41,151 nt of DNA from Pseudomonadota bacterium (GTDB lineage Bacteria; BMS3Abin14): positions 1 through 41,151 of the forward strand of contig QIEJ01000185.1 of the NCBI GenBank assembly GCA_003228585.1, in the 5' to 3' direction. Under the pieces are notes generated by a model. It ran no database searches. It saw nothing but the letters and a program-made list of their open reading frames with translations, and was not told where the DNA came from. The position numbers and the translations under genes were made by a program. This document shows positions 2,120 through 40,664 of the stretch, piece after piece (positions within the stretch are counted from its first letter, which is position 1; the number at the start of each line of letters is the position of its first letter).

Positions 2120-2150
2120 CGCGCACCTCGTTTCGGGCCTGAAGGCCCTT

Positions 2151-10281: not shown

Positions 10282-10656
10282 TCAAATTTTCAGGAGTTCC
10301 TTAACGGTGGAGAGGAGGTTTGTGGACTGGATGGGCTTGGTAATGTAGGCGTCCGCTCCCAGGGCCATGGCCCGTTCCCTGTCTTCCCTTGCGCCTTCCG
10401 TTGTGATTATGACAATTGGTATATCCTTGTAGCTGTCGTTTCCCCGTACGAGACTGACCAGCTTTAACCCATCCATGATGGGCATGTTGATGTCGGTAAG
10501 GATCAGATCAACCTCGTTGGAGGACAGCTTTTTCAGTCCATCGACTCCGTCGGATGCCTCTATCACTTCGGCCTTCGGAATGCGGTTAAGGGCAAATCGT
10601 ATAAGCTGCCTCATGGTTGGGGAATCTTCTATGACCAGAAACTTTAACGCTGCCAT
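10282..10656 (-). CDS. CheY-like single-domain response regulator
   Basis: 124 aa: LVIEDS, phospho-acceptor context LILTDINMPIMDG, IITTEG, KP. Paralogous to the cheY at 20525..20896. Confidence 0.85.
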   Translation of the reverse strand: MAALKFLVIEDSPTMRQLIRFALNRIPKAEVIEASDGVDGLKKLSSNEVDLILTDINMPIMDGLKLVSLVRGNDSYKDIPIVIITTEGAREDRERAMALGADAYITKPIQSTNLLSTVKELLKI

Positions 10657-10669
10657 TTGATTTCTCCCT

Positions 10670-11509: not shown

Positions 11510-11577
11510 TTATCCCGCTCCAGACTCGCCCCAGCTTTCCGAAAAGCGCCCCCCCAAAAGCAAAGGATGTAGATATT

Positions 11578-11648
11578 CAGCTTCTGGTTTCCAGTTTCTG
11601 GTTTCTAGATTTAACTTAGTACGTAGTACTTAGTACATTGTACTTAGT
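11578..11648 (-). repeat. Two abutting heptanucleotide arrays in the cheB/GAF intergenic leader
   Basis: Plus strand: cagcttc|tggtttc|cagtttc|tggtttc|tagattt, then acttagt|acgtagt|acttagt|acattgt|acttagt. About 10 units in 7-nt phase. Confidence 0.7.
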
Positions 11649-11655
11649 TGTCGAT

Positions 11656-12759: not shown

Positions 12760-13616
12760 ACATCGTCTCCCGGCTTCTGGTAGACCATTACCTGAGTAAG
12801 GTGCTTCAGCCTGAAGGCCGTTGTAATATTCATCAACGATTCAGAGTGTCCTAAAAGTAAATATCCACCTGTGGCAAGCTTCCGGTGAAAGGCATTGACA
12901 ACCCTGGCCTTGGCGTTTTTATCAAAATATATAATGACGTTCCTGCAAATAATGACATCACACTCGCCTATCAGCCCCAACATCTTTTCATCAAGAAGAT
13001 TGTGGTGCCCGAAATGAACCATGGACCGGATGGATTCATCGAGGACATATTTCCCATCTTCGAACCTGGTGAAATAGCTCTGGATGCTGGAATTATCGGT
13101 AACTCTGAATGAGGACTGTGAATATTCAGCCTTCCTGGCCGATTTAAGGACCTGTTGACTGATATCCGTCCCGATGATGTCGATCTTCCAACCTTCGAAA
13201 ATTCCTGATTCTTTTATCAGGATAGCCAGGGTGTAGGGTTCCTCACCGGTGGAGCAGCCGGCACTCCAGATGCGAATATGTCTGGTCTGTGCCTTTCGTT
13301 GAGCAAGTTCAGGTAGTATTTCCTCTGAAAAAGCATCAAGCTGATTCTTTTCCCTGAAAAAATATGTTTCGTTGGTTGTGATAATATCCAGCAGTTCATT
13401 GATTTCCTGAACTTTATCCTGGTGAAAGAGTAGATAGTGATAATATTTCAGGAAGGAGTCAAAGTGGTGAGCTCGAAGCCTGTTCTGAAGTCGGCTCTCA
13501 AGAAGGAACCTGCTGGATTGGTCAAAAAAAAGACCGCAGTACTCATATATGAACCCGGACAGAAGTCTGAACTCCTCATCTGCCAGTTCGATCCTCCCGG
13601 TGGTATCAAAAAGCAT
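12756..13616 (-). CDS. cheR: Chemotaxis protein methyltransferase CheR
   Basis: 286 aa with ETYFFRE and the SAM-binding motif IWSAGCSTGEEPYT. 4-nt overlap with cheB and 11-nt overlap with the upstream HEAT gene. Confidence 0.9.
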   Translation of the reverse strand: MLFDTTGRIELADEEFRLLSGFIYEYCGLFFDQSSRFLLESRLQNRLRAHHFDSFLKYYHYLLFHQDKVQEINELLDIITTNETYFFREKNQLDAFSEEILPELAQRKAQTRHIRIWSAGCSTGEEPYTLAILIKESGIFEGWKIDIIGTDISQQVLKSARKAEYSQSSFRVTDNSSIQSYFTRFEDGKYVLDESIRSMVHFGHHNLLDEKMLGLIGECDVIICRNVIIYFDKNAKARVVNAFHRKLATGGYLLLGHSESLMNITTAFRLKHLTQVMVYQKPGDDV

Positions 13617-15654
13617 CTGGATTCCTTGATTCCATCAGGGATCGGATAGTGTCCCGAACGGTTCTATCCGAATCAGATTCGGCCATATCCATCAGGGTCT
13701 GAAGCGTCCCTTCATCCTCATTATCCACGAGGGAATGTGCAGCAAAGATCCTTACGCTGGCATCATCATCCCTTGTGGCCTGGAGAAGAAGTGCCAGGCT
13801 TCTCTCTCCGGGAACCTTTCCAAGAACCCTGCAGATACTCCTCCTGATCTCCACAACCTCCTTCTTGAAGGCATCCTCAAGAATATCCATAACATTCTCG
13901 TGACCTTCCGAGCCTCTTTGACCAAGCGCCTCAACTACAGAAGTTTTGATCATGAGGTCGTCGCCGAGCATGAGATCGGAAAGATCATCCGGCTCCATGT
14001 CGGGATGAACGCTAAGGGCTGAGACAGCAGCGGAGCGAACCCATGGATCCTGATCAAACAGGGCTGCCCTCAGTGGCTCCGCTGCTCCAGGAGATTTCAG
14101 GATCTCCAGAGCCATGGCGGCTTCAACCCGAACAGCAGGGCTTTCGTCGGCCAGGGAGTTGATGACTGCTGATGCGGCCGAAAGGTCGCTGGTTCTCTTC
14201 AGACCGCCGACAGCCGCTGCTCTGACAACCGGCTCGGCATCGTGAAGGGCACCCAAAAACAGCTTCAGATGCCCTGAGACATCCACTTGCCCTAGCACTC
14301 GGATAAGAAGAGCTTTTATCTCCGGTTGGGATTCGGGCAACAGAGGCACGATCTTTTTTGAAAGGGAGGCAGAATATTTTATGCCCAGCCTGACGAGTGC
14401 TTCAGCCGCAGCCTCAGAGACGTCACGATACTCATCGGGCAGAAGGTCCAGAAGCGGGTCTATGGAGTCGCTGTCGCCCAGGATAGACACCGCCTGTGCC
14501 GCGTCTTTTCGCACATGTCCGCTTTCATCCTTGAGCATGGGATAAATATCCTGGAGTAAATCGGTGTCGCCGAGCAGTGCCAGGACCTGAAGGGCCCGTC
14601 TGCGAACCAGTTCATCCTGGTTTTCCAAAAGCACGGTGAGCACAGAAGAGTCCCTTTCGGCGAAACGGTAAAGCGCCATATTCACGTCCCACTCCATTGA
14701 TTCATCCTCAACCATGGAGAGGCCGGCCTCGAGGGCCCGTTGGCCACCGATCATGCTCAGTGCAGCAAGATAGCCCTGCTTGTTCTCAAGATTGTCCGAG
14801 ACAGCAAGCTGGTCGGCCATGAATTCCACAATCTGGATATCAGCCGCAGATGCCACTTTCCCCGAGAAGGATTCCAGACCTTCCTGAACTCCTTCCACCA
14901 GGGCTCTTCGACAGATCAACCCGGCAGCCAGGAAAACCGCTTTAGCGGCGCCGCGAGGCATCGATGGGAGGATCTCAAGGAGCCGGGAGCCCTCATCCAG
15001 TGAGCCAATTCTCCCGATCCCATGGATCGCCGGGTTCGCAAGGAGCCTGTTGTCCAGATACCTGAAGAAAATCGGAAGCGCCTCCGTGTCCTCCAACCTT
15101 GCCAGAGCACTGAGAATACTGAAAGCTACCCAATTATCCGCTCCTTCAAGTGCGCCTATGAGAGCCCTGCTCGAGGCACTGTCTCCAATGGAAGCCAGGC
15201 TCTCGGCGGTTGCAGCCCGTATGTTGTCCTTCGGATCATCGAGCATTCTCACAAGATCCGGAATTACTGAGGGATCAGCTATGTTCCCGAGGATGTCCAC
15301 GAGGAACTTTCTCACATCGGGCTGGTCAATAGAGAGGTGGCCGCTAATTAGAACGGCAGCATCGGGTCCCATTCCCTCCAGAGCCTCAACGATGGAGTTC
15401 CTGAGTGTCACCTCCCTTGAAGGATCCATAAGGGGAACCAGATGTGAGATCAGTTCCGGAGTCGGGTTAAGTCCGGAAAGACCCTCAATGGCTTCCTTCC
15501 GCACCCTCCAGCTCTCATCGGACAGAGGGATCTCAAGCCACTGGAGATCATCCTCCGTAAGATCCGCTTTCAGAGAGACCATCGCCTGGCGGCGCTGCTC
15601 CTCGTCTGAAGATCTCAAACCTGATATCAAGGCTTCTCTGGCCTCAGGTTCCAT
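13606..15654 (-). CDS. HEAT-repeat (PBS-lyase-type) protein embedded in the che operon
   Basis: 682 aa from ATG 15654 (MEPEAREAL). Many repeats of the D..VR..A...L type: WRVRKEAIEGL, NIRAATAESL, VRRRALQVL, HVRKDAAQAV, PVVRAAAVGGL, AVRVEAAMAL, WVRSAAVSAL, SVRIFAAHSL. Confidence 0.75.
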   Translation of the reverse strand: MEPEAREALISGLRSSDEEQRRQAMVSLKADLTEDDLQWLEIPLSDESWRVRKEAIEGLSGLNPTPELISHLVPLMDPSREVTLRNSIVEALEGMGPDAAVLISGHLSIDQPDVRKFLVDILGNIADPSVIPDLVRMLDDPKDNIRAATAESLASIGDSASSRALIGALEGADNWVAFSILSALARLEDTEALPIFFRYLDNRLLANPAIHGIGRIGSLDEGSRLLEILPSMPRGAAKAVFLAAGLICRRALVEGVQEGLESFSGKVASAADIQIVEFMADQLAVSDNLENKQGYLAALSMIGGQRALEAGLSMVEDESMEWDVNMALYRFAERDSSVLTVLLENQDELVRRRALQVLALLGDTDLLQDIYPMLKDESGHVRKDAAQAVSILGDSDSIDPLLDLLPDEYRDVSEAAAEALVRLGIKYSASLSKKIVPLLPESQPEIKALLIRVLGQVDVSGHLKLFLGALHDAEPVVRAAAVGGLKRTSDLSAASAVINSLADESPAVRVEAAMALEILKSPGAAEPLRAALFDQDPWVRSAAVSALSVHPDMEPDDLSDLMLGDDLMIKTSVVEALGQRGSEGHENVMDILEDAFKKEVVEIRRSICRVLGKVPGERSLALLLQATRDDDASVRIFAAHSLVDNEDEGTLQTLMDMAESDSDRTVRDTIRSLMESRNPDAF

Positions 15655-16561
15655 TGTCCTCCTCAGGCCGCGCCGATCCGACACCGCGGGAGCCAAGCAG
15701 ATCGAGCATTTCATTAGAGAGAATCTGATGATAATCACCCTCGTATTCCGGGAACTGTTGTTTGAGCAGATCTACTCCTTCCTGTATTTCGGCGGCTATC
15801 ATCTCAAGAATCCGCTCAGGCACTGAATTCCTTATTGTATCCTCGCTGTAAAGCGCTATATCACTGACAATGACTCTGCACGTTCTCCTGATCCTTTCCT
15901 CGAATGTTTCATCAGAACCCCCCACCAGATTCCGATGAATCTGCTCCAGCTCTCTCCTGTCGTCAATCTCCTGATCCGTCGGCGGCTTGACAAGATCAGG
16001 TCCTGCCTTCATGGGCCCCGATTCAGGCCCCGGATCGATGAGTCTTCTTATCTTTGGTGCCAGAAAGTCAGGGAGATGATGCCTTTCGATATGGTCATCT
16101 GCACCATAAAGTGATGTGGGGGCTCTCTTGTAGCGTGTCCCATGGTAAAGTGAGGACAGGAGAATAATGGGGAATTTTCTGTCCTTGAGAGTCTCCTTCA
16201 GTCTGTCGATCATCTCGTAGCCCACCATGTCGGGAAGAGAGACGCTTACCAATGCCGCATCGGGAGGAGATTGGGAGATGATCTCGAGAGCCTGTTCCCC
16301 GGTTGGCGATACCCGTCCACGTAAACCATCCCTGGCGAGGATTTTCAGGATCAACTGTGCGAGCTCCACTTCGTACACAACAACGAGAATCTCATGAACT
16401 GCACCTTCCGGATTTACAGCGTCATCAGGAAGGGCAATGGAGACCAGCGAGCCGCATTTCCTGCAGTTAAAAGATATGACACCGGGTGGGAGCTTTTCAG
16501 GATGAATCCTGTAGTATTTCCCACAGATGTTACAGCGTGAAATATTAAAATTATCCTTCAT
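15644..16561 (-). CDS. MJ0042-type zinc-ribbon + degenerate receiver (pseudo-REC) protein
   Basis: 305 aa from ATG 16561 (MKDNFNISR). CxxC...CxxC ribbon: CNICGKYYRIHPEKLPPGVISFNCRKCG. The REC-like fold has the phospho-acceptor replaced: LVSVSLPDMVG aligns with DxxMPxMDG, so D becomes S. The acidic pair is VYEVE and K becomes R in GADDHIERH. Confidence 0.6.
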   Translation of the reverse strand: MKDNFNISRCNICGKYYRIHPEKLPPGVISFNCRKCGSLVSIALPDDAVNPEGAVHEILVVVYEVELAQLILKILARDGLRGRVSPTGEQALEIISQSPPDAALVSVSLPDMVGYEMIDRLKETLKDRKFPIILLSSLYHGTRYKRAPTSLYGADDHIERHHLPDFLAPKIRRLIDPGPESGPMKAGPDLVKPPTDQEIDDRRELEQIHRNLVGGSDETFEERIRRTCRVIVSDIALYSEDTIRNSVPERILEMIAAEIQEGVDLLKQQFPEYEGDYHQILSNEMLDLLGSRGVGSARPEEDNGT

Positions 16562-17363
16562 CCTTCGAGACCTCAGTGTCATCACAGTCAACGGCCAGGA
16601 CTTTTTGAAGGTTCAGAAGGATAATCAGCCGTTCATCCACCTTACCGATCCCGATGAGAAATTCACCCTCCACACTTCCAACGATCTCGGGGGGAGGATC
16701 GATCCTGTTCAGTGGAACATCCATCACCTGTACGACCAGGTCAACGAGCAGACCGAAAAAGTGCTCGTTGGATTTCACAACGATGATCCTGTTCTTTGGA
16801 TCCTGCTCAGTGGCAGCCAATCCCAGTCTTTTTTTCACATCAAAGACCGGGATAATGACACCCCGCAGGGAGATGATACCCTGAATATAAGCCGGCGTCC
16901 TGGGAACTTCCGTAGCCTCCCTTGGCCTGACGATCTCCTTGATGTCCATGATATTCAGACCGTATTCCTCATCCCCAAGCATGAAGGTAAGAAGCTGTAT
17001 CTGCTCCTCTTCCTCCACCGCCTTTTCCTCATGCTGACTCCGGAGGATGTCTTTCAGGTCCTTCAGTTCTCCCTCGACAGCCTCCTCAAGGGCAACAGTT
17101 GAGACCTCCGCCTTAACCTCGGCCGGAACCATGGGACTTTCCTCTACAGCAGGAGCGGCTTCTGTTTTCTCCTCGGGAACCTCTGGAGCCTGAGTCTCAG
17201 TACTCTGTTCCTCAGCATCAGCAGCAGGCGAAGGTCTCTGAACCGGCTGCTTTTTCGCAGGTCTTTTTTTCGGTTTTGAAGCCTCGGACTTTTTGGTCCC
17301 GCTTCCCCTTTTTTTTGCCGTTCCGGCTTCTTTCGCTTTTTTCCTGATCTTCACCAGATCCAT
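16551..17363 (-). CDS. cheW: CheW-domain coupling protein with a long low-complexity N-terminal extension
   Basis: Start chosen at ATG 17363 (MDLVKIRKK); the ORF-track start lies inside repeat C1. A ~130-aa Lys/Pro-rich then Glu-rich segment precedes a CheW domain (LLTFMLGDEEYGLNIMDIKEIV...IISLRGVIIPVFDVKKRLG...FGLLVDLV). Confidence 0.8.
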   Translation of the reverse strand: MDLVKIRKKAKEAGTAKKRGSGTKKSEASKPKKRPAKKQPVQRPSPAADAEEQSTETQAPEVPEEKTEAAPAVEESPMVPAEVKAEVSTVALEEAVEGELKDLKDILRSQHEEKAVEEEEQIQLLTFMLGDEEYGLNIMDIKEIVRPREATEVPRTPAYIQGIISLRGVIIPVFDVKKRLGLAATEQDPKNRIIVVKSNEHFFGLLVDLVVQVMDVPLNRIDPPPEIVGSVEGEFLIGIGKVDERLIILLNLQKVLAVDCDDTEVSKDEG

Positions 17364-17394
17364 TTTATTTCCCTTTTTTGAGGTCAAGACCTTT

Positions 17395-17490
17395 ACCACA
17401 GAGGACTCAGAGAGCACAGAGGAGTTCTGAAATCAAAAACCTTATTGAAAAACTAAAAAACCCTCTGTGTCCTCCGTGATCTCTGTGGTT
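17395..17490. repeat. Family-C inverted-repeat element, copy 1
   Basis: Left arm accacagaggactcagagagcacagagg (three CACAGAGNN units), an AT-rich ~40-nt non-conserved core, and right arm ccctctgtgtcctccgtgatctctgtggtt (complementary units). Same ends and orientation as 20936..21032. Confidence 0.8.
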
Positions 17491-17497
17491 CAATTTT

Positions 17498-18313
17498 TCA
17501 TGCTTCCGCTGGTTCCAGATCGAGATCCTCCACGACATCCAGAACGATATCCGGACCGATGTGCGCAAGTTCCTTTGAAAAGCCCGTCAGAAGAGCGTTG
17601 GCTGCAATGTTGTTGATTATCCTGGGCAATCCACCTGAGTATCGATAGATGACATCAATGGCATCATCTGTGAAGAGACCACCCTCCCCACCGGCTTCCA
17701 GAAGTCGGTGAGCAACGTACCCTCCCGTATCCTCCCTCCCCATTGATCCCAGGTGGTATTGAATCCCAATCCGCTGTCGAATGGCCTCGTAAGGGGATTG
17801 TTTGAGTCTTTTTCTCAACTCGGTCTGGCCGATAAGAATAAGGGAAAGAAGATTCAGGTCGTCGAGTTGAAAGTTGGTTAGAAGACGAATCTCATCGAAT
17901 GTCGCCTTGGAGGGGATCAACTGTGCTTCGTCGATGATGATCACGGGGCACATATCCTCCTCAAAATTATTGAACAGAAACTCATTTATCTGTTCGAGCA
18001 GGTCCGTCCTGAAATATGCCGGCTGGGCCACGCCCATCCTCAACGCCAGGGTTCTGAGGAACTGATTGGGAGTGAGCCTGGGGTTGATGAGCAGAATAGG
18101 GCGGTAATTCTCGGGAAGCAAATCGATCAGGGCCCGGCTCAGCAGCGTTTTTCCGGTACCTATCTCGCCCGTTAGAAGGGTCAACTCTCTCTCTTCGGCC
18201 CCGTAACGGATCCGTTCGAGAGCTTCCTGATGAATGGGACTCCTGTACAGGAAAGCCGGATTGGGTGTTTTCCCGAAAGGCCTGGTGTGAAATCCGAAGT
18301 GCTCCTCGTACAC
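17498..18313 (-). CDS. ExeA/GspA/MshM-like AAA ATPase
   Basis: 271 aa with a GTG start 3 nt after the cheA stop. N-terminal FGFHTRPFGKTPNPAFLYRSPIHQEAL, Walker A LTGEIGTGKT, Walker B-like VIIIDEAQ. Confidence 0.7.
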   Translation of the reverse strand: MYEEHFGFHTRPFGKTPNPAFLYRSPIHQEALERIRYGAEERELTLLTGEIGTGKTLLSRALIDLLPENYRPILLINPRLTPNQFLRTLALRMGVAQPAYFRTDLLEQINEFLFNNFEEDMCPVIIIDEAQLIPSKATFDEIRLLTNFQLDDLNLLSLILIGQTELRKRLKQSPYEAIRQRIGIQYHLGSMGREDTGGYVAHRLLEAGGEGGLFTDDAIDVIYRYSGGLPRIINNIAANALLTGFSKELAHIGPDIVLDVVEDLDLEPAEA

Positions 18314-18316
18314 GAC

Positions 18317-20350
18317 CTATGCCCCCCTGCCTGCCGTACCAAGCTTGATGGCATCTACCATGAGGCCCGCCACGTCCAGTACAAGTACGGTGGATTGGTC
18401 CCCCAGTTCCGCGGCTCCTGCCAGAGCGGTGATTTTAGCGAATGCCTCCCCAAGGGGTTTTATGACGATATCCTGTTTGCCGAGCATCTCCTGAACGGCC
18501 AGGGCCATAGTTCTGTGCCCTATTCCAATAATAACCGCGTAGACTTCTCCATCATCCTCACATCTCGGAAAATCGAAGATCTCCTCCAATCGAAGTAATG
18601 GTAAGGTCCTGTCCCTAAGGTTGATAACCTCCTTGCCCCGCATGGTCTTGATGTCCGCACCGGTAAGCTGGATGGTTTCATGGATCGAACCCAGTGGAAT
18701 GGCAAACGTCCTTTCCGCGCTCCTTATCAGGAGTGCCTGGAGGATGGCCAGGGTGATGGGCAGGGTGAGAGTGACCCTGGTGCCGTGATCCTTTACAGTA
18801 CTTACTTCAACAGTCCCTCCCACCTTTTCCAGTTCTCTCCGGACAACGTCCATCCCAACACCCCGCCCGGAAATCTCTGTGACGGTCTTTTTGGTGGAAA
18901 ACCCCGGTTTAAACAGAAGGGAGAGGAGCTCCTCGTCGGTCAAGGTCTCACCATCCTCGAGGACTCCACTACCAAGGGCCGACAATTTCACTTCCTCAAG
19001 ATCAATGCCCTGACCATCGTCCTGGACCTCGAGAACAACGTGGTTGCCCTGTTGATAGGCGGATAGCCTGACCAGTCCTATCTCTTTTTTCCCTTTTGCA
19101 CGGCGCACATCAGCACTCTCAATGCCGTGATCAACCGAATTGCGGACCATATGCAGGAGAGGTGATACCATTTCCTCCATAATCATCTTATCCAGTTCCG
19201 TATCCCCACCGACAAACTCGAAATTGATCTCTTTGTTCAATTCTCGGGCGATCTTCTTAGACACCCTCTGAAGCCTGTTGAATAACTGGCCCATGGGGAC
19301 CATTCGGATACTCATGACCGAATCACGCAGATCGATGAGTTTCTTTTCCATCTGAGTGTTGATCTTGTCCATCTCCAGGAGGGTTTCAGCCTGTCCCCCC
19401 TCGCCATCTTTTCTCATACGATCAGCAATGCTGGAAAAATTTGATCTGAGAAGCACTAACTCTCCGGCAAGGTTCATGAGGTAATCGAGTTTGACAATGT
19501 CCACCCTTACTGTGTTGCTGACGCCCCTGACCTCTTCCTCGAGATTGTCTCCACCTGTCCTGCCAACCTTCTTTTCCATGAGGGTTCCATCGGAAACAGA
19601 AGTGCCCGGATCTCTGTAATCGACCGCAACCAGATCGGTGTCTTCGGTTTGAAACCTGCCTCTTAACTCTTCTTCCGGCTTTCTGCTGGTAAAGTAGAGG
19701 AGAAAACCGATGGCTCCGTCCGGCCCACCCTCGGTCTGAGGCAGTGTGGTCAACAGCTCCCCGATCTCCTTGATGCCGTCACTGATCTGTTTGAGCTGGA
19801 CGTCAAAACTACGGAGAGAAAAGTTGCATGCCAGCCGGAAAAACGGGATCCTTTTCCCAATGTTATCCCTGAAACGGTGCTCTTCGTACTCTGAAAGGAT
19901 CTCGGCCATTCCCTCGGGAACATCAATGTGAGCGTACAGGTCCTCAGAAACAGTGTGCTCCCGGTTCTGTACTACGCGCTCCAGATCCTTTAAGAATTCC
20001 TCCGTGCTGACTGAAGCATCCCCTTCACCCTCTGCAACAGCATGAACCATCCTGATTATGAGACGTACGCCATCGGACAGAAGTTCCACGACCTCATCGG
20101 AGAGCGCCACCTTGTCCAGGCGAAGGGAATCGAGAAGGCTTTCGACATGATGAGAAAGTGAACCGAGATTCTCCAGGTTCAACATGCTCGAAAGACCTTT
20201 CAGAGAGTGGGCATTGCGGAAAATGGCGTTGATGATATCCGGTTTCCGATGATCGTCCGGAGAAAGATCCATCAAAAGAACGATAGAACTGTCCAGGTCG
20301 TCCAGAATATCCTCTGCTTCGGACACGAAATCTTTAAGGGATTGATCCAT
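18317..20350 (-). CDS. cheA: Chemotaxis histidine kinase CheA
   Basis: 677 aa: Hpt (FRNAHSLKG), dimerisation/HATPase (HMVRNSVDHG, VQDDGQGID, SGRGVGMD) and a C-terminal CheW-like domain. Confidence 0.93.
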   Translation of the reverse strand: MDQSLKDFVSEAEDILDDLDSSIVLLMDLSPDDHRKPDIINAIFRNAHSLKGLSSMLNLENLGSLSHHVESLLDSLRLDKVALSDEVVELLSDGVRLIIRMVHAVAEGEGDASVSTEEFLKDLERVVQNREHTVSEDLYAHIDVPEGMAEILSEYEEHRFRDNIGKRIPFFRLACNFSLRSFDVQLKQISDGIKEIGELLTTLPQTEGGPDGAIGFLLYFTSRKPEEELRGRFQTEDTDLVAVDYRDPGTSVSDGTLMEKKVGRTGGDNLEEEVRGVSNTVRVDIVKLDYLMNLAGELVLLRSNFSSIADRMRKDGEGGQAETLLEMDKINTQMEKKLIDLRDSVMSIRMVPMGQLFNRLQRVSKKIARELNKEINFEFVGGDTELDKMIMEEMVSPLLHMVRNSVDHGIESADVRRAKGKKEIGLVRLSAYQQGNHVVLEVQDDGQGIDLEEVKLSALGSGVLEDGETLTDEELLSLLFKPGFSTKKTVTEISGRGVGMDVVRRELEKVGGTVEVSTVKDHGTRVTLTLPITLAILQALLIRSAERTFAIPLGSIHETIQLTGADIKTMRGKEVINLRDRTLPLLRLEEIFDFPRCEDDGEVYAVIIGIGHRTMALAVQEMLGKQDIVIKPLGEAFAKITALAGAAELGDQSTVLVLDVAGLMVDAIKLGTAGRGA

Positions 20351-20358
20351 TGAATCGA

Positions 20359-20428
20359 GTTCCAGGTTTCAGGTTTAAGGTTTCAAGTTTCAAGTCAGGA
20401 CAAAGAACAAAGTGCGAAGTACAAACGC
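20359..20428 (-). repeat. Ten-unit heptanucleotide array immediately upstream of the cheA start
   Basis: Plus strand: gttccag|gtttcag|gtttaag|gtttcaa|gtttcaa|gtcagga|caaagaa|caaagtg|cgaagta|caaacgc, beginning 9 nt from ATG 20350. Confidence 0.7.
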
Positions 20429-20502
20429 ACGTCATTGCGAGGACCCTGAGTCCCGCCTTTGGCGGGATCGAACGGTCGAAGCGGTTTTCCTTTGCACTTT
20501 GT
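20407..20502. repeat. Family-B element, copy 1 (hairpin core bracketed by a 13-nt inverted repeat)
   Basis: Core 20431..20475 gtcattgcgaggaccctgagtcccgcctttggcgggatcgaacgg contains the hairpin cccgcc-ttt-ggcggg. Flanks are acaaagtgcgaag (20407..20419) and ctttgcactttgt (20490..20502), 12/13 complementary. The core recurs at 40771..40815. Confidence 0.75.
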
Positions 20503-20524
20503 ACTGGTTGTTTGGCTCCTGTTT

Positions 20525-20896
20525 TCATTCGCCAAGCAATTCTTTCACAAAACCCTGAAGCTCCTCCGGGTCAAAGGGTTTTATTACGTAACGGTCCGCT
20601 CCGAGTTTTAACCCTCTTTCCCGGTCGACATCCCGACCTTCGGTGGTGACAATGATCACTGGAATATGTCTGAACTGTTCGCTATGTTTGACAAATCGGA
20701 CGACCTCGAGACCGTTGATGTCCGGCATGTTAATATCAGTGATAACCAGATCAGGTACGATTTCGGGAAGTTTACGCAGTGCCTGGAAACCGTTGGCAGC
20801 TTCAACGACCGTAAAGTCTCCCAAGTCCTCCAGGGACGTGACGATCAGGGATCTCGTCATCGAGGAATCTTCAACTACCAGGATTTTTTTCGCCAT
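20525..20896 (-). CDS. cheY: CheY response regulator
   Basis: 123 aa: ILVVEDSS, LVITDINMPDINGLE, IIVTTEG, IKPF. Confidence 0.9.
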   Translation of the reverse strand: MAKKILVVEDSSMTRSLIVTSLEDLGDFTVVEAANGFQALRKLPEIVPDLVITDINMPDINGLEVVRFVKHSEQFRHIPVIIVTTEGRDVDRERGLKLGADRYVIKPFDPEELQGFVKELLGE

Positions 20897-20935
20897 GATT
20901 CAGCTCCTAAATCAACGAACTTCAGACTGCACATA

Positions 20936-21032
20936 ACCACAGAGGACACAGAGAGCACAGAGAAAAGCTGAATTTCCTGGGTAAGACAAAGTTCTTCCTC
21001 TCCCAACACCTAACCTCTGTGATCTCTGTGGT
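20936..21032. repeat. Family-C inverted-repeat element, copy 2
   Basis: accacagaggacacagagagcacagag ... cctctgtgatctctgtggtt, in the same orientation as copy 1. The central ~45 nt are unrelated to copy 1. Confidence 0.8.
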
Positions 21033-21046
21033 TCAGGCCGTTCCAG

Positions 21047-22798
21047 TTAGCTTCCTCCCTGATCTTCCCTGAGCTTCATCTCCAGAAAGGCTCTGTCCAG
21101 GGCCAATCCTGTGTGGCTCAGGAAAATATCCATGCTGCTTGTCGGCGCCAGACCCGCCCGCTCGGGAAAATCATCGGCATAAAGAATAACCGCGACCTTT
21201 CCCATGGTGATAATGGGACCTATGTAGATTTCATGAGGCTTGCCGCCGCCGAGTTCCTCGAAAAGTGCCCTCTCGATTTCACTGTCGGATGGAGCACCCC
21301 GAAAACTCTGTTGAGTCTGAATAACCCTTGAAAATACGGAGTCATCACACGAAGAAATTACCAGGGACCGGACGGCGGAATCAGCATCCCTTCCTTCGCC
21401 GAGATGGACACCGAATTGGCCCAAACCCTTGATGTCAATTTTTCTTACGAGAAAAAGAACGGCCCTGGAAGCGATCTCCGAGGCGAACCTCAACGCAAGG
21501 AGGGTAACCTCAACGCTGACATCTTTTCTGTTGAGTTCGGCCACATAGAAGCGCAAATTTGCCATGGCCGGATCGTGCAATTCCCGGGCTTCACTTACAA
21601 CGCCTTCCTCCAGTCCGTCGAAGGGAAGATCCAGGCCCTCAAGGTCGTCCGACAGTTCCTGCTGTATATCGTAATACTCGACCTCCTGGAGCTCGACCGA
21701 CTCATCCCGGCCTGATAATACGTTCGCAAATGCCGCTACTCTCTCTGCCCAGGGAACGTCCTCCTCTTCGCCCATCTTTGAAGCTTCCAAGGGTATAAGA
21801 GTTACACTCTCAATGCCTGACAATTTATTCTCAAGTTCGGGGGAAACATCACCTCTGTGCAGAATTACCGCAGGCAGATTGAATCCCAGATCCCAAAGAG
21901 TAGACAGGATGTCCAGCGCACCGAAAATCATTCCGTCCGTGATCCCTCCAACTTTCAGGTCAGTAACAATCAGGGGATAAATATTTTCGGTTCTCAGTTC
22001 CTGTATCCGTGTCAAGGCAGGGGCTGCACTCTCAAGTGCACAAACTTTGATATCAACTGATTCCAGCGCCCTTTTCAACTCAGCTTCCCGTTCCTGATCT
22101 TCAGAAACCAGAACAATAACTCTATCTGTTTTCTCCGGCAGCGGTGGCTGGATATCCGGAATATCAAATTGGGTTTTGTCTTCCTCACCCGGCATTTCGT
22201 CAAGGTCAAGTTGGAATTCGATAACATTATCCTGACCTGGCTGACCTTGCTGCTCGGGTTGCAATATCTCATTCGGCGAGGCATCCCTGACAAGTTCATC
22301 CTCGCGTCTGGCACCCTCCATAACCAGAAACTGGGCATTGATCCCTTCTTCAAGAAAGAGGGGTTTCATACGATTCAGTGCGGGATGGTCACCCTCACTG
22401 TCGATCAACTGAAAACTGAAAGTCCCCTCCTCCCAGAGAAAAAGAGAGAACATGATCTCCTCGACTCTTTTTTGCAGGACTTTTTCGAAGGAATCTGTCG
22501 GAATATTCAGTTCACTACTCACCAGCTCCTTCAGATCTTCTATCCTTTCACAGGTCTCCAGGCGTCCCTTCAGTGGTTTCAACTGTGACATATCAAGAAG
22601 CCCATGATGGACCAGAAGACCCAGCAAACCATCCTTTTCCCCGGAACGGCCGGCATAAAGTATCATCCCGTTCCGGATGTATACATTCGCCCCTCCCGCA
22701 GGGCCCTCGAGACGAAGAAGTCCGGACCGTCTGCTGAGACTCACAATCTGAAGAATCTCGCCCAGAGAAAGATCCTCCAGCTTGCCCACCAGACTCAT
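21047..22798 (-). CDS. DUF4388 (PATAN) - receiver-like - GAF-like multidomain protein
   Basis: 583 aa from ATG 22798: MSLVGKLEDLSLGEILQIVSLSRRSGLLRLEG (DUF4388 signature). The middle is REC-like (RVIVLVSEDQ...YPLIVTDLKVGG). The C-terminal ~170 aa look GAF-like. The ORF-track start at 22996 would overlap the upstream gene by 139 nt. Confidence 0.6.
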   Translation of the reverse strand: MSLVGKLEDLSLGEILQIVSLSRRSGLLRLEGPAGGANVYIRNGMILYAGRSGEKDGLLGLLVHHGLLDMSQLKPLKGRLETCERIEDLKELVSSELNIPTDSFEKVLQKRVEEIMFSLFLWEEGTFSFQLIDSEGDHPALNRMKPLFLEEGINAQFLVMEGARREDELVRDASPNEILQPEQQGQPGQDNVIEFQLDLDEMPGEEDKTQFDIPDIQPPLPEKTDRVIVLVSEDQEREAELKRALESVDIKVCALESAAPALTRIQELRTENIYPLIVTDLKVGGITDGMIFGALDILSTLWDLGFNLPAVILHRGDVSPELENKLSGIESVTLIPLEASKMGEEEDVPWAERVAAFANVLSGRDESVELQEVEYYDIQQELSDDLEGLDLPFDGLEEGVVSEARELHDPAMANLRFYVAELNRKDVSVEVTLLALRFASEIASRAVLFLVRKIDIKGLGQFGVHLGEGRDADSAVRSLVISSCDDSVFSRVIQTQQSFRGAPSDSEIERALFEELGGGKPHEIYIGPIITMGKVAVILYADDFPERAGLAPTSSMDIFLSHTGLALDRAFLEMKLREDQGGS

Positions 22799-22857
22799 GG
22801 TTGGATCGATCACGTTTCTGGATCTCTCCGAGGCGGAATTCTGGTCGTTTTCGCTCT

Positions 22858-23586
22858 TCAACGTCCCTCCGAAAGCCTGTCCGCCAAGGCCTGGGGAAGC
22901 CCTTCCCTGTGCATCTTTTCCTGAGTCTCTGACACATCGTACTTGACACGGACCAGGGAGAACTCGGATGTTTCGGTATCCAGAAGACCAAAACATGCAT
23001 CAGGATTACCATCTCTGGGTTGCCCGACACTACCGACATTTATCAGGTACCGGCACCCATCTTCCACCACCAGTTTGTCCCCGGGGACAACGGCCACCGA
23101 TCCCTCCGGATCCACGCCCACCATCACCGGCTGATGTGAGTGTCCGACAAAGCAGAGTGTATTATCAAAATGGGTAAAGTTCTCCTCCGCGTCCCATAAT
23201 GTAAAAATGTATTCCCACTGATCCGGGAATCGCGGACTGGCGTGTACCAGGGTGATTCCATTCCTTGTCTCGATCATGGGAAGGGAGATCAGGTAACTGG
23301 ACAGGTCAGCCTCCAGTTGTCTGGCGTTCCACTGGATGGCATCTCTGGCATTGGAGTTAAAGGAGTCCGAATCCATCATACCGACGGCGGCAAAATCGTG
23401 ATTTCCCGCAACGGCGACATCCGCATTATTAAGCACCCAACTGGTGCACATGTTGGGATCAGGACCATATCCCACAACGTCTCCGGCGAAATAGATGGAA
23501 TCCACACCGAGTCCGTCTATCTTCTCGCAAACCGCATCGAGAGCCTGGAGGTTGGAATGGATATCTGAAAGGATGGCGATCCTCAT
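22858..23586 (-). CDS. Metallophosphoesterase (YfcE/MJ0936-like)
   Basis: 242 aa with ILSDIHSN, GDVVGYGPDP, AGNHD and VGHSH. Confidence 0.8.
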   Translation of the reverse strand: MRIAILSDIHSNLQALDAVCEKIDGLGVDSIYFAGDVVGYGPDPNMCTSWVLNNADVAVAGNHDFAAVGMMDSDSFNSNARDAIQWNARQLEADLSSYLISLPMIETRNGITLVHASPRFPDQWEYIFTLWDAEENFTHFDNTLCFVGHSHQPVMVGVDPEGSVAVVPGDKLVVEDGCRYLINVGSVGQPRDGNPDACFGLLDTETSEFSLVRVKYDVSETQEKMHREGLPQALADRLSEGR

Positions 23587-28338: not shown

Positions 28339-29452
28339 TTAACTCCGTTTCTCCATCAGATAAGCTTGAATAAACTCATCAATATCCCCGTCCAACACGG
28401 CATCGGCATTCCCAAGTTCGTGTCCCGTCCGATGGTCCTTTACCATCCGGTATGGGTGAAGAACATAACTGCGTATCTGGCTGCCCCAGGCTATCTCTTT
28501 TTTCTCCTCCTGAAGCTTTGCCATCTTCTCCGCTTTTTCACGCTTTAAATGCTCGTAAAGCCGTGCCCGGAGAATTCTCATTGCAGTAGCTCTGTTCTTG
28601 TGTTGGGATCGCTCGTTCTGGCAGGTCACGACAATGTTGGTTGGAAGGTGGGTGATCCGGACAGCGGAGTCAGTAACATTGACATGTTGACCACCCGCAC
28701 CGCTGGAGCGGAATGTGTCGATACGCAGGTCCTTCTCTTCTACTTCAACTTCCAGGTCGTCCTCAACTTCCGGATAGGCAAAAACAGATGCGAAGGAGGT
28801 GTGGCGACGGCTGCTGGCATCAAAGGGTGATATGCGGACAAGCCTGTGGACACCAGTCTCTGCCTTGAGGTTACCAAAAGCATAGTCACCCTCGACAGCG
28901 ATGGTTGCACTCTTTATCCCGGCTTCCTCAGCGGGCTGCAGGTCCAGAACCTCGGCTTTAAAACCGCGCCTCTCAGACCATCTCATGTACATTCTCAGGA
29001 GAGTCTGGGCCCAATCCTGGGATTCCACACCACCCGCACCTGGATTGATCGTCAGTATTGCATTCCTGGAATCGGCTTCATCGCCGAGGAGGGATTCCAG
29101 TTCCATGTCTGCAAGGGCCTTTTCGGCATTTCGAAGCTGGGGCAGATACTCCTTTAAAAGTTCATCGCTCTCCTCGTTCCTGTCCTCCCCCATGAGGTCA
29201 GCCGCCACTTCAAGGTCACCGATCCACTCCTGTATGCGATTATGCCCCTCGATTTCCCTCTTGAGACGGCTAATCTCTCTGGTCTTGGTCTGGGCATTAT
29301 CCTGATCTTTCCAGAAACCCGGGTCAGCAGCTTCCTTTTCAAGCTTCTCTAGCTCAACAGCTTTTTCACCCAGGTCAAAGATGCCTCCTGAGGGAATCCA
29401 GTTTCTCCGTCATATTGTTTATGGCCTGCCTGAATTCATCGAAATGGTCCAT
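28339..29452 (-). CDS. prfB: Peptide chain release factor 2, made via a programmed +1 frameshift
   Basis: Frame 0: ATG 29452, MDHFDEFRQAINNMTEKLDSLRRHL, then TGA (29377..29375). After a +1 shift it continues DLGEKAVELEKLEKEAADPGFWKDQDNAQ...AADLMGED and joins the 289-aa ORF (SPF motif ISPFDA, GGQ motif SGAGGQHVN). Total 25 + 345 codons. The start has GGAGGA 7 nt upstream and lies inside the last 34 nt of lnt. Confidence 0.93.
29374..29389 (-). promoter_or_regulatory. RF2 +1 frameshift site with internal Shine-Dalgarno
   Basis: Coding strand AGGAGG CAT CTT TGA C. This has the same architecture as E. coli prfB (AGGGGG TAT CTT TGA C). Confidence 0.9.
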
Positions 29453-35579: not shown

Positions 35580-36785
35580 TCACTCCCCAGGGTTGACGAA
35601 GGTAAACCCCCTGGACGTCAACTCCATCTTGTACTGTCGAGCAAAGGGATAAGATATATCGGACGGTAAAATGTAATCTCCCTTGACAAGGTCCTGCCCC
35701 TCCATGGGGTATGACCCCTTCTCAAGGCGATAGATCCGGGCTGCCAGATCCAACCGATCAATCTGAGCCTGGGAAACCGATTTCCTGATCATGACAGCCT
35801 TTTCGGATGTCATCTGTGAAAAGACAAGGAATCGATAACCGGACAGGCTCAGCGTGGAGAAGGCAATAAAGAGTAGACCGCCGACCAGAGCGAAGGTCAG
35901 AACCATGGTCAGAAGGCGTCTGCCGCCCCTGACCTTCTCCTCATGCTCAACAGACCTCGGTGTGGAGGCGGGTACCTTGACCGGCTTTATGAGACCGTAT
36001 CCCAAAAGGTCGACCAGGGCTCGGGCCGTTTCGAAATCTCCCAGCAGTGTTCGGTAGGCGAGACCACTGACCGAAAGCTCACCATCCATCAGGCCAAGGA
36101 CCTTCTCCTGCTCGGTGGTAAGCAGGACCCGATCCCCATCATAGGATTTTGGTTTGCTCTCGCCAAACACATCAATACCTGCCTCGTCGTCCTCCCTCGC
36201 TTCCTGCTCCATCTCGGATCTCCGGAAGATCTTATCCTCAACCCCGGGAACGCGGGCGAACACCATATCCATAGAGGGTATCTTGACCTTGATCCCAGGC
36301 CACTCATCGATGATCCTGGCAGCCTCCATGAGCACGTATTCAGCGGATAGAGGGACAATGTACTTTTGGTCGTATGAAACATTGCTGGCCTCGAAACGGT
36401 AATTACCACTTGTCCACTGAAAGATTTTGAACAAGGTCTCTTTTATCTGGAAGGTAAAAACGGTCTGGAACTGCTCAGAGGTCAGATACCGTTTATCCTG
36501 CAGGACCACACCCAGCAGCTTCATTGTCCTGGCCTGTTCCTCCAGTGCGCTTTCCAACTGGGCACTATCCAGCAGCCCGGACTTGACCATGATAGCCCCG
36601 ATTTTTTCCTTTTCCTCGGTGGCGCTGGAACCCGGCTCAGCGCTGACAATCTTTCCATCCTCGAAGGTTACCGCGACACTTTTCCCGCGGTCCTCGAGGG
36701 AGAGCACACCCGTCTTCCTCTGATGAGCTATGAGCTGGAAGATGTCCGACAAACCGAAGTCTTTGAGGGTGCCTTTCAGCGCCAT
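35580..36785 (-). CDS. DUF4388 (PATAN) domain protein with a C-terminal membrane anchor
   Basis: 401 aa: MALKGTLKDFGLSDIFQLIAHQRKTGVLSLED (DUF4388 signature) and a TM segment LLTMVLTFALVGGLLFIAFSTL near residue 300. 3-nt gap to phoH. Confidence 0.65.
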   Translation of the reverse strand: MALKGTLKDFGLSDIFQLIAHQRKTGVLSLEDRGKSVAVTFEDGKIVSAEPGSSATEEKEKIGAIMVKSGLLDSAQLESALEEQARTMKLLGVVLQDKRYLTSEQFQTVFTFQIKETLFKIFQWTSGNYRFEASNVSYDQKYIVPLSAEYVLMEAARIIDEWPGIKVKIPSMDMVFARVPGVEDKIFRRSEMEQEAREDDEAGIDVFGESKPKSYDGDRVLLTTEQEKVLGLMDGELSVSGLAYRTLLGDFETARALVDLLGYGLIKPVKVPASTPRSVEHEEKVRGGRRLLTMVLTFALVGGLLFIAFSTLSLSGYRFLVFSQMTSEKAVMIRKSVSQAQIDRLDLAARIYRLEKGSYPMEGQDLVKGDYILPSDISYPFARQYKMELTSRGFTFVNPGE

Positions 36786-39374: not shown

Positions 39375-40583
39375 CTACTTGCTCTCGATCTCCTTCAGTG
39401 TCCTCAAAATGGCGTTCATTCCGGGATCATCGTTGATATCGTGGATGTCCACGTACCTGACGATACCCTCTTTGTCGATGACGAAAATGGCCCTTTCCGC
39501 GACCCCTTCTGACCTGAGGACGTTGTAGAGCAACGCCACCTGTCCGTGGGGCCAGAAATCGCTGAGGACGGGGAAGGAAGTGTTCAGGCCCCTGGACCAC
39601 GCCTGAAGTGTGGGCAGATTATTGACAAGCACACTCAGAACCTGAGTGTCCATTTCCGCGAAACGAGGTTTCAATTCCTCGTACGCGGACATCTGCCCGC
39701 TTCACGTAGGTGTGAAGGCCGCCGGGAAAAAGGAAATCACCACATTCTTCTTACCCCTGTAATCGCTGAGCGTGATCTCCCCTCCCTGAGCACTGGGCAG
39801 GGTAAAATCAGGGGCCTTCTGTCCCACCCGCACCTCGTTTGTGGGCTTCATTCGCGGGGCGGGCACCCAGAGGGGGACCTGGCCCTGACCGAAAGCGCTC
39901 CCGTCCGCATAAGCCGCCGATGGCTGGATCAATCCGAGGAAGGCCGATTTCAGATAACCAAGGGCATCCAGTGACGATAGTTCCTTGAGCGCTTTGTCGA
40001 CCTCCTGCCTGTAGTTCTCATAGGGCTGCGCACCCTTGATCATGGTTCCGTTGATAATAACGGTGGGTGTACTCCAGACATCAAGATCGTGCACCATGTC
40101 CAGATTCTTCTGAAGTTCATCCAGATGATCCATGTTATCCATGCTCTTTATAAATCGGTCCATATCCAGACCCAATTTACGCGCCAGGCTCTCAATCACA
40201 TCCCTGTCCAGTTCAGGAGCGTTCTCGAAAAGAAGGTCATGCATTTCCCAGAATTTCCCCTGGTCCCAGGCCGCATAGGAAGCAAGGGCGGTGTCACGGG
40301 AAATATGGGAGTAGGTTCTCATGTAGGGAACATAGACAAACCTGATCTTACCCTCGTATTCTTCGTAGAGTTTCTTGAAGGTCGGACCGACCTCCTTGCA
40401 GAAGGGTCACATGAAATCCCCTATTTCATAAACCGTAACGGGTGCGTCGTCAGGCCCCTTGGAGGGCGCCCGGACAGGTTCAAACTCCACCTTCTGAGCG
40501 GACGCTGCGGGCACGGCGACCGTGGTGAAAACCATGACCGTGACGGATAACAAAACGGCCAGCAAGAGGATTCTTCGTTTCAT
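39375..40583 (-). CDS. Secreted DsbA-like / AhpE-like peroxiredoxin fusion selenoprotein (two in-frame UGA = Sec)
   Basis: One frame is open from ATG 40583 (GGGGG RBS) to TAG 39375 except TGA 40407..40409 and TGA 39702..39704. Signal peptide MKRRILLLAVLLSVTVMVFTTVAVPAASA. DsbA/Thioredoxin_4-like domain: APVTVYEIGDFM-U-PFCKEVGPTFKKL...QGKFWEMHDLLF...STPTVIINGT. Peroxiredoxin domain: VGQKAPDFTLPS...VVISFFPAAFTPT-U-SGQMSAYEEL...FPVLSDFWPHG...AIFVIDKEGIVRY. 402 codons. Confidence 0.8.
39655..39689 (-). promoter_or_regulatory. Candidate bacterial SECIS hairpin for the peroxiredoxin UGA
   Basis: RNA UCCGCG-U-ACGAGG-AAUUGAAA-CCUCGU-UU-CGCGGA: two 6-bp helices, a 1x2 internal loop and an 8-nt apical loop. 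It starts 12 nt after UGA 39704..39702. Confidence 0.55.
40377..40395 (-). promoter_or_regulatory. Candidate bacterial SECIS hairpin for the DsbA-like UGA
   Basis: RNA GGAGGUC-GGUCC-GACCUUC: a 7-bp stem (one G-U) with an apical loop beginning GGU. It starts 11 nt after UGA 40409..40407. Confidence 0.55.
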
Positions 40584-40606
40584 TGGTTTTACCCCCTTTT
40601 AAATCA

Positions 40607-40627
40607 GTTTCTGGTTTCAGGTTTCAA
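40607..40627 (-). repeat. Heptanucleotide array (3 units) in the selenoprotein gene leader
   Basis: Plus strand gtttctg|gtttcag|gtttcaa. Coding strand TTGAAAC CTGAAAC CAGAAAC, 24 nt upstream of ATG 40583. Same unit as the cheA leader. Confidence 0.6.
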
Positions 40628-40655
40628 GCTTTTTACCACAATGACTATGGATGGA

Positions 40656-40664
40656 ATTATAGCA
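40656..40664 (-). promoter_or_regulatory. Candidate extended -10 promoter element (TGcTATAAT) for the selenoprotein gene
   Basis: Coding strand ...gaatatcgaTGCTATAATtccatcc..., about 70 nt upstream of the ATG. The -35 is weak (TGGAAC). Pattern match only. Confidence 0.4.

Follow-up and report, generated by a model that had tools for sequence, protein, structure and literature searches.

The window analyzed here, the whole 41,151-nucleotide stretch of contig QIEJ01000185.1, carries near its end a minus-strand gene (40583..39375) that encodes a fusion of a DsbA-like domain with an AhpE-like peroxiredoxin (Prx). Its reading frame contains two TGA codons, and each of them falls on the position of a catalytic cysteine. 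The locus, which gene callers split into three small open reading frames (ORFs), is almost certainly one gene, and we conclude with high confidence that this gene encodes a genuine double selenoprotein with selenocysteine (Sec, U) at residues 59 and 294. Both parts of the fusion are known selenoprotein types; we found no description of a double-selenium DsbA–Prx fusion in a literature that our search covers incompletely. Taken as a whole, the protein is best explained as an exported 402-residue (seleno)thiol peroxidase of the cell envelope with an internal relay, an explanation that we consider reasonably likely.

The frame runs through 402 codons to a TAG stop and contains exactly two internal stops, both TGA. 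A mechanical ORF list breaks it into same-frame pieces of 58, 206, and 105 amino acids. An earlier reading of the DNA, made from the sequence only, had joined the last two pieces across a gap consisting of TGA and the three codons for S-G-Q, and had placed the start at ATG 40583 behind a GGGGG ribosome-binding site, with an N-terminal segment ending in ASA; both the ORF list and the sequence bear this out. The exact 206-residue middle ORF is recorded on 11 contigs, and the four places shown for it (JGI, ENA, and two Logan samples) each have the 58/206/105 split. The window stretch corresponds to JGI contig Ga0212232_1000038. Because the identical sequence occurs in independent samples, a sequencing or assembly artifact is excluded.

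Elsewhere in the window TGA is a real stop, as the sequence-only reading had argued. It is the most frequent stop there and closes 16 of the 29 long stop-to-stop segments on the minus strand; moreover, prfB, the gene for release factor 2 (RF2), which reads UGA, depends on this codon for its programmed frameshift (AGGAGG-CAT-CTT-TGA-C, 29389..29374). Together, these two observations establish the standard code, and a reassignment of TGA in this genome is excluded. A systematic scan of the window revealed no other gene with an in-frame TGA; the other same-frame ORF pairs are adjacent genes or non-coding frames.

Relatives were gathered by a word-indexed protein search, followed by scans of GTDB representative genomes and JGI metagenomes, and their codons at the two sites were classified. 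Of the two patterns applied to the metagenomes, one derived from CPFC by back-translation, which biases it toward cysteine forms; the members of the subfamily came from the other pattern. Nineteen distinct relatives that cover both sites (L001, L004, L010, L088-L099, L101-L103) all possess TGA at both, like the window gene, to which they are 56-80% identical. The same holds for L087, which is 99% identical to the window, and partial contigs show TGA at whichever site is present. In both independent scans, all recovered subfamily members have TGA in the two columns, far beyond what chance would give. In the read-through translations of about 20 relatives, coding conservation keeps the same frame on both sides of each UGA. 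Database proteins of the family are affected accordingly in their annotation. Several fragments (P0026, P0030, P0050, P0079, and others) terminate exactly at ...FTPV, and the locus of P0026 (L004) has TGA at both codons. The JGI record P0001 (L001 1163..2362, JGI 3300059819) shows tryptophan at both sites where the DNA reads TGA/TGA, and is apparently a database mis-translation of a selenoprotein from a contig translated with TGA as tryptophan.

Cysteine takes the place of both TGA codons in more distant fusions. The full-length fusion proteins P0066 and P0068 are Cys/Cys forms, as are the distant fusions L007, L008, and L009 (33-38% identity), and both TGA codons align with cysteine in P0066, P0068, L007, and L009. 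An intermediate state, TGC at the first site combined with TGA at the second, is found in L002; its protein record P0039 comprises 295 amino acids with CPFC and ends in ...FTPV. At the site 1 column, cysteine (TGC/TGT) is present in L002, L007, L009, and many standalone DsbA-like genes. The peroxidatic column is occupied by cysteine in about 75 standalone Prx genes; the standalone AhpE-like genes are mostly cysteine forms, mainly from metagenome-assembled genomes (MAGs) of Desulfobacterota and Syntrophales. Three standalone Prx genes carry TGA at this column (L011, Anaerolineae; L032, Gemmatimonadota; L084, Chloroflexi). As the sequence-only reading had proposed, TGA #1 replaces the first cysteine of a CPFC motif; the cysteine-containing fusions place cysteine in both TGA columns, and the contrast between a TGA/TGA subfamily and Cys/Cys forms farther away answers the question of what homologous fusions carry there.

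Both TGA codons are followed by a hairpin at the distance expected for a selenocysteine insertion sequence (SECIS), and such hairpins are present at both sites in all members of the subfamily. We took the criteria for SECIS elements from PMC1088965 and PMC8659212 and number the hairpins with the U of UGA as nucleotide 1. At site 1, nucleotides 15-21 pair with 27-33 and enclose a 5-nucleotide loop, [G/A]GU[C/U][C/U], in which G23 never varies and at least 90% of the sequences have U24. The minimal SECIS of Escherichia coli is a stem-loop of nucleotides 15-31, 11 nucleotides past UGA, with G23/U24 in the apical loop (PMC8659212). The geometry of site 1 matches this minimal (fdhF) element except that the bulged U17 is absent.

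Since covariation says little about hairpin 1, we measured synonymous differences instead, using codon pairs for identical residues among 16 full-length genes. The synonymous difference is 0.48 gene-wide and falls to its global minimum (0.014-0.14) in the codons right after TGA #1; a second minimum (0.19-0.23) lies 14-20 codons past TGA #2. Hairpin 2 is supported by covariation. In 22 sequences, 84.3% of cells are paired, compared with 43-67% when the 3′ partners are slid, and five pairs are changed on both sides (e.g. G-C, C-G, and A-U at columns 18:48). Covariation scores 0.274, as compared with at most 0.155 in the slid versions, and none of 500 shuffles reached this value.

The hairpins are restricted to the selenocysteine forms. 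At site 1, the local minimum free energy is −10.5 kcal/mol in Sec forms versus −3.8 kcal/mol in Cys forms (p=6e-6); at site 2, the values are −17.8 and −7.9 kcal/mol, respectively (p=8e-9). Hairpin 1 is lost in L002, which has cysteine at site 1. A covariance model built on site 2 (R1) was searched in 452 kb over 79 homologous loci. Its three best matches are the three TGA-bearing standalone Prx genes, each match beginning on the TGA, and no Cys form among these loci was matched at the equivalent site. The proposal of a SECIS-like hairpin behind each TGA is thus sustained, at site 1 by synonymous conservation and restriction to TGA forms, and at site 2 also by covariation and by a covariance model that selects TGA-bearing homologues only. 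A counterpart of hairpin 1 exists in a Nitrospirae MAG (L083 2053..2631, JACQZD010000009), which encodes a DsbA-like selenoprotein that stands alone, starts with a signal peptide, and has the motif DFQ-U-PHC. This protein is 44% identical to the N-terminal half of the window protein. Its gene has the GGUCGGUCCGACC hairpin core at the offset found for site 1, and it probably lies near the unfused form from which the N-terminal module descends. Together with the R1 matches in standalone Prx genes, this indicates that both SECIS elements are common to single-domain selenoprotein relatives.

Other proteins of these superfamilies were encountered in the same searches. L143 (~1400..2170) contains a DsbA-like domain with DYQ-U-PYC after a different N-terminal domain, which is another Sec-containing DsbA-like architecture. 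In a Deltaproteobacteria MAG, L043 has a second Prx-like gene (7149..7661) composed of two same-frame ORFs split exactly at the peroxidatic column, probably another unannotated Sec-peroxiredoxin. The divergent relative L111 (~1210..1750; 46% identity) reads DFM-U-IFC. Its hairpin contains a bulged U and shows compensatory changes, and its frame has one more stop where the signal peptide is predicted to be cleaved. Both protein searches (P0002-P0120 and P0135-P0281) are dominated by proteins of 560-1200 amino acids with 3-6 tandem Thioredoxin_4/DsbA domains; these multi-DsbA repeat proteins stem from Bradymonas, Myxococcota, and related lineages and are unrelated to the fusion. Swamped by them, the exhaustive search of representatives yielded no useful census of the fusion.

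For domain and PDB sequence searches, U was replaced by C in the conceptual protein. Residues 43-196 match Pfam Thioredoxin_4 (E=4e-21; 76.4 bits versus a gathering score of 23.2) and DSBA (56.7 versus 25.6 bits), and residues 253-393 match AhpC-TSA/Redoxin (E=7.7e-38), with 129.7 bits for AhpC-TSA (residues 253-378; cutoff 26) and 97.8 bits for Redoxin (cutoff 26.6). The assignments to PF13462/PF01323 and PF00578 that the sequence-only reading had anticipated thus lie above the gathering scores, and both U residues fall on catalytic cysteine columns.

Both sequence and fold identify the C-terminal domain as AhpE-like. Its best PDB sequence match is AhpE of Mycobacterium tuberculosis (1xvw, E=2e-30), which is also the best Foldseek match (TM 0.87). 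In the alignment, FFPLAFTGIC of AhpE is opposed to FFPAAFTPT-U, so that codon 294 falls on the peroxidatic cysteine, as the sequence-only reading had proposed and in agreement with the cysteine-containing fusions. Pro-287, Thr-291, Sec-294, and Arg-364 are invariant in the family alignment and match the Pro-Thr-Sec-Arg set of the AhpE motif. The N-terminal half matches Bacillus subtilis BdbD (3eu3, E=1e-20), actinobacterial DsbA-like proteins, and ScsC proteins; the invariant Thr-172, Pro-173, and Thr-174 occupy what the alignment suggests is the cis-Pro loop of DsbA-type proteins. In the whole protein, U59, C62, and U294 are the only Cys or Sec residues. The Prx domain, which has U294 only, consequently lacks a resolving cysteine.

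We modeled the relative P0001, with tryptophan at both Sec sites, in AlphaFold2, using nine homologues in the alignment. The model comprises two confident domains and a linker (residues 200-243) with a predicted local distance difference test (pLDDT) score below 50. In the first domain, helices 89-162 are inserted between the strands of the thioredoxin fold. The predicted TM score (pTM) is 0.49, and thus no fixed interdomain orientation is predicted. Foldseek found no PDB chain that spans both domains.

The protein is probably exported, judging from its sequence. Relatives show equivalent n-, h-, and c-regions that end in ISA/E or IHG/A, and AlphaFold2 places a low-confidence helix at the N terminus of P0001. 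The twin arginines of MKRR are not kept in the family (KR in L010, VRK in L002), which favors secretory (Sec-type) export over the twin-arginine translocation (Tat) route, and the segment reads without a cysteine or lipobox.

The linker between the domains records an older export signal. Standalone exported Prx homologues start with typical N-terminal signal peptides, followed by F.G.IY.PG.LKP.DS, and this arrangement aligns to ...LGYLKSAFLGLIQPSAAYA|DGSAFGQGQVPLWVPAPRMKPTNE of the fusion. On the strength of this alignment, the linker is a degenerate signal peptide, which is what the sequence-only reading had suspected. As a fossil, it records the fusion of two exported genes. A transmembrane segment was considered for the same stretch and rejected, the hydrophobic run being too short and broken by Lys and Pro. 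P0062 and P0072 have a Gly/Arg/Pro-rich insertion of ~50 residues just ahead of the relic signal peptide.

From these features we propose the following scheme. Each UGA would be recoded to Sec through its own downstream SECIS by the standard bacterial SelB pathway, and the signal peptide would direct the protein out of the cytoplasm, so that the mature form would comprise a DsbA/BdbD/ScsC-like domain, a flexible linker of ~45 residues, and an AhpE-like Prx domain. Sec-294 would reduce H2O2 or an organic hydroperoxide and be converted to a selenenic acid. Because the Prx domain lacks a resolving cysteine, we propose the tethered U-x-x-C domain as the resolver, acting either in the same chain or between the partners of a Prx dimer via an Se–Se or Se–S intermediate. 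Resolution would leave a selenylsulfide in the DsbA-like domain, to be re-reduced by a DsbD/CcdA/ScsB-type membrane reductase or by another envelope thiol. The net activity would be that of a cell-envelope (seleno)thiol peroxidase. The internal relay, drawn by analogy with separate periplasmic proteins (see below), is on balance plausible.

Several observations weigh against this interpretation. The signal peptide was called only by eye (MKRR, a hydrophobic core, and ASA followed by QK). Hairpin 1 is almost invariant and shows essentially no covariation, with a double change at one pair, and Rfam detected no SECIS family at either hairpin at gathering or permissive thresholds; its sole match, SNORD23, is spurious. 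Neither selA, selB, selD, nor a tRNA-Sec gene was found in the 41-kb window or in the flanks that were covered. With ARAGORN, neither the window nor 25 related loci yielded a tRNA, and hence no tRNA-Sec either, and Pfam searches of 36 window ORFs detected neither sel genes nor a partner of the DsbD/CcdA/ScsB type. A gene of the latter type does not adjoin the fusion in the window or in the relatives. AlphaFold2 shows no fixed contact between the two domains of P0001, and domains of the DsbA/BdbD type are classically oxidases, which is equally compatible with a role in oxidative folding. Domain hidden Markov models (HMMs) applied to 80 loci revealed no unfused precursor operon in which a DsbA-like gene adjoins a standalone Prx gene; gene-neighborhood support for a functional link therefore has to be dropped, and the fusion itself remains.

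The main rival explanation retains the double selenoprotein and sees its purpose in the flow of oxidizing equivalents. The Prx domain would use peroxide to oxidize the DsbA-like domain, which would in turn put disulfides into exported substrates, making the protein a peroxide-driven folding catalyst independent of DsbB and quinones. In the endoplasmic reticulum (ER), PRDX4 or GPx7/8 feed protein disulfide isomerase (PDI) in an analogous manner. Up to the oxidized U-x-x-C domain, the chemistry is identical to that of the peroxidase relay. The best solved relative of the N-terminal domain is the disulfide oxidase BdbD, the other N-terminal matches include actinobacterial DsbA-like oxidases, and no reductase gene lies nearby. 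However, reductase/isomerases of the ScsC type also match the domain (6mhh, 6nen, 4xvw), and with an oxidase in BdbD and a reductase/isomerase in ScsC, homology leaves the direction of electron flow unsettled. Standalone exported Prx relatives are widespread without a fused oxidase, which suggests that peroxide removal is the ancestral function, and the supply of peroxide is uncertain in the presumably anoxic habitats. We consider oxidative folding unlikely. Similarly unlikely is its most explicit version, a self-contained selenium-based envelope catalyst that would pass oxidizing equivalents from Sec-294 via an Se–Se bond and U-P-F-C to exported clients without DsbB, quinones, or O2. If true, a probably anaerobic sediment lineage would possess, in fused and prokaryotic form, an analogue of the PRDX4/GPx7–PDI relay of eukaryotes.

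The remaining explanations dispense with the relay or with selenium. The fusion might serve co-expression and co-export only, if signal peptidase or another protease cut the chain at the internal A-x-A (AYA/D, residues 226/227) to release two envelope selenoproteins. A short hydrophobic stretch followed by A-x-A is present in all Sec/Sec members (AYA, AHA, AFA, or ALA), true signal peptides are homologous to the linker, and the lack of interdomain contact in the AlphaFold2 model fits two independent products. Yet this stretch is short and broken by Lys and Pro (LGYLKSAFLGLIQP), unlike functional standalone signal peptides, and once the N-terminal domain is exported it would be wrongly oriented for cleavage by signal peptidase I. 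Moreover, the distant Cys/Cys fusions P0066 and P0068 are still fused, through a Pro/Lys-rich linker without such a site. Cleavage is accordingly improbable. Even less credible is that the gene does not encode a selenoprotein at all, with the TGA codons being true stops (in three small genes or a decaying pseudogene) or being read as Trp, Gly, or Cys. All gene callers break the locus at the TGA codons, the JGI translation of P0001 with W at both resembles a TGA=Trp code call, and the Sec machinery is not seen within the window. Against this, stops would cut both domains at their catalytic residues, and the frame, the protein sequence, and the identity of the TGA codons are conserved over about 20 lineages at 56-80% identity, with homologues that have cysteine at both columns. 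The hairpins after both TGA codons show covariation and synonymous constraint and are absent from Cys forms. This reading, including decoding by an altered genetic code or by near-cognate read-through, is strongly disfavored; TGA is the most frequent stop in the window, RF2 with a UGA-dependent frameshift is encoded there, and no other window gene has an in-frame TGA.

Table 1. Features of the fusion gene and of prfB in the window (aa, amino acids; nt, nucleotides; hairpins numbered from the U of UGA)
Feature	Position	Strand	Basis
Complete coding sequence, 402 codons + TAG (39377..39375), two UGA-Sec codons	39375..40583	-	translation; frame kept through both TGAs in about 20 relatives
Possible extended -10 element, TGcTATAAT	40655..40663	-	inferred only
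Shine-Dalgarno-like GGGGG, 8 nt 5′ of ATG 40583..40581	40592..40596	-	read from sequence
Predicted Sec-type signal peptide, aa 1-29, MKRR + 22 hydrophobic residues + ASA/Q	40497..40583	-	judged by eye, relatives
DsbA-like/Thioredoxin_4 domain, aa 43-196, U59-P-F-C62 and T172-P173-T174	39996..40457	-	Pfam, PDB, alignment, AlphaFold2
TGA #1, Sec59 (codon 59), first position of the U-P-F-C redox motif	40407..40409	-	translation, alignment to Cys homologues
SECIS-like hairpin 1, nt 15-33, 7-bp stem GGAGGUC/GACCUUC, 5-nt loop GGUCC with G23-U24	40377..40395	-	folding, synonymous-rate minimum, L083 core
Flexible interdomain linker, aa 200-250	39834..39986	-	AlphaFold2 pLDDT <50 in P0001 equivalents; inserts in P0062, P0072
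Relic signal peptide in linker, aa 205-226, LDALGYLKSAFLGLIQPSAAYA, ends A-x-A	39906..39971	-	alignment to standalone Prx signal peptides
AhpE-like 1-Cys-type peroxiredoxin domain, aa 253-393, P287-x3-T291-x2-U294 and R364	39405..39827	-	Pfam, PDB, alignment, Foldseek
TGA #2, Sec294 (codon 294), peroxidatic position	39702..39704	-	translation, AhpE alignment, relatives' codons
SECIS-like hairpin 2, nt 15-51; lower stem 15-21/45-51, upper stem 25-28/39-42, apical loop 29-38	39654..39690	-	folding, covariation, covariance model
prfB (RF2) programmed +1 frameshift: ATG 29413, SD-like AGGAGG, CTT-TGA-C at codons 12-13	29374..29413	-	sequence reading
prfB downstream frame with PCRF and RF-1 domains	ORF 28339..29208	-	Pfam

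A consensus promoter scan found no full sigma-70 site near the TGcTATAAT element (40663..40655). Upstream of the ribosome-binding site (~40603..40626, minus strand), a 7-nucleotide unit is present in three copies (cttGAAACctGAAACcaGAAACtg); a 99%-identical copy of the locus (L164 2413..2433) has one unit fewer. This repeat may be a regulator site or a slippage-prone repeat.

The neighbors of the fusion gene are housekeeping genes, namely DUF1844, a tetratricopeptide repeat (TPR) protein, DUF4388/PatA_N, phoH-ybeY-corC-lnt, prfB, the rib operon, nusB, a che cluster, leuS, holA, and murJ. The downstream order DUF1844, TPR protein, PatA_N, and PhoH is kept in relatives, of which L002 and L003 also have mazG upstream. 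The chemotaxis-like cluster (10282..23000, minus strand) comprises CheA, CheW, CheR, CheB, several receiver domains, and a GAF protein, and includes a 710-residue HEAT-repeat protein. One DUF4388/PatA_N protein is encoded inside this span (21047..22996) and a second at 35580..36785. The leucyl-tRNA synthetase encoded in the window shows 70-76% identity to MAGs labeled “bacterium” or “Deltaproteobacteria bacterium,” followed by Bacillota at about 60%.

The reading of the gene as a double selenoprotein has several implications. The family is mis-annotated wherever examined, either as fragments of 58, about 206-225, and 105 amino acids or with tryptophan at both active sites. One bacterial mRNA contains two differently built SECIS elements, one fdhF-like and the other a longer bipartite hairpin, and because each also occurs in a standalone single-domain selenoprotein, the gene lends itself to testing how Sec is inserted at several sites and how selenoprotein genes fuse. 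With U59, C62, and U294 as its only redox residues, the protein constitutes a minimal system for the resolution of selenenic acids and for extracytoplasmic Se–Se/Se–S relays. It also suggests that uncultured bacteria use selenium to handle peroxide in their envelope, or peroxide to form disulfides there.

Bacterial proteins with multiple Sec residues are often domain fusions, such as MbdU, the rhodanese/DsbD fusion-like TsoB, and arsenite methyltransferase/AhpD, according to a 2026 selenoprotein review (PMC13188914). A DsbA–Prx fusion does not appear in the table of that review, as far as we consulted it, and a double selenoprotein of this type is absent from a fusion survey based on Global Ocean Sampling (GOS) data (PMC2398784); no NCBIfam model reaches its cutoff for the window protein. 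Within this incomplete coverage of the literature, the suggestion that the fusion is uncharacterized stands, and the gene adds a double-Sec architecture to those in the 2026 catalogue and in NCBIfam.

Each half has a counterpart among the single-Sec families that the same review describes. Sec-peroxiredoxins (TxxU; PrxU of Eubacterium acidaminophilum) have Sec at the PF00578 peroxidatic position (PMC13188914). PrxU differs from the window protein in being single-domain and cytoplasmic with one Sec, and the score of the PrxU model NF040737 (64 bits versus a cutoff of 270) shows that the window protein is not a PrxU equivalog; its Prx domain belongs to the AhpE-like branch. DsbA-like form 1 (UxxC, PF01323) and the DsbG-like/Rcas_1661 family (NF041057) share the DsbA-type fold (PMC13188914). 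NF041057 is the best NCBIfam match for residues 42-197 (91.2 bits versus a cutoff of 190). In contrast to these DsbG-like (seleno)lipoproteins, the window protein scores below the cutoff, lacks a lipobox, and is joined to a Sec-peroxiredoxin.

Among solved structures, BdbD of B. subtilis and the ScsC proteins are closest to the N-terminal domain (E=1e-20 to 1e-12). Like that domain, they have the Thioredoxin_4 architecture with its CxxC-type motif, inserted helical domain, and cis-Pro loop, but they are standalone Cys proteins. AhpE of M. tuberculosis (Rv2238c; 1xvw, 1xxu, 4x0x), which aligns to residues 249-381, has PxxxTxxC, the conserved Arg (Arg-364 here), and FP(V/L)LSDFWPHG in common with the C-terminal domain, and likewise lacks a resolving cysteine. 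AhpE is a standalone, cytoplasmic Cys enzyme and is reduced by mycoredoxin-1/mycothiol, whereas the window domain has Sec, is predicted to be exported, and is tethered to a UxxC thioredoxin-fold domain. The nearest functional analogue is found in Caulobacter crescentus, where an envelope Prx, PprX, is served by the periplasmic thioredoxin-like protein TlpA, which is fed by the DsbD-family protein ScsB (Cho et al. 2012, PMC3322552). Whereas the Caulobacter relay consists of separate Cys proteins with an identified membrane donor, the window protein unites the thioredoxin-fold partner and the Prx in one selenium-based chain.

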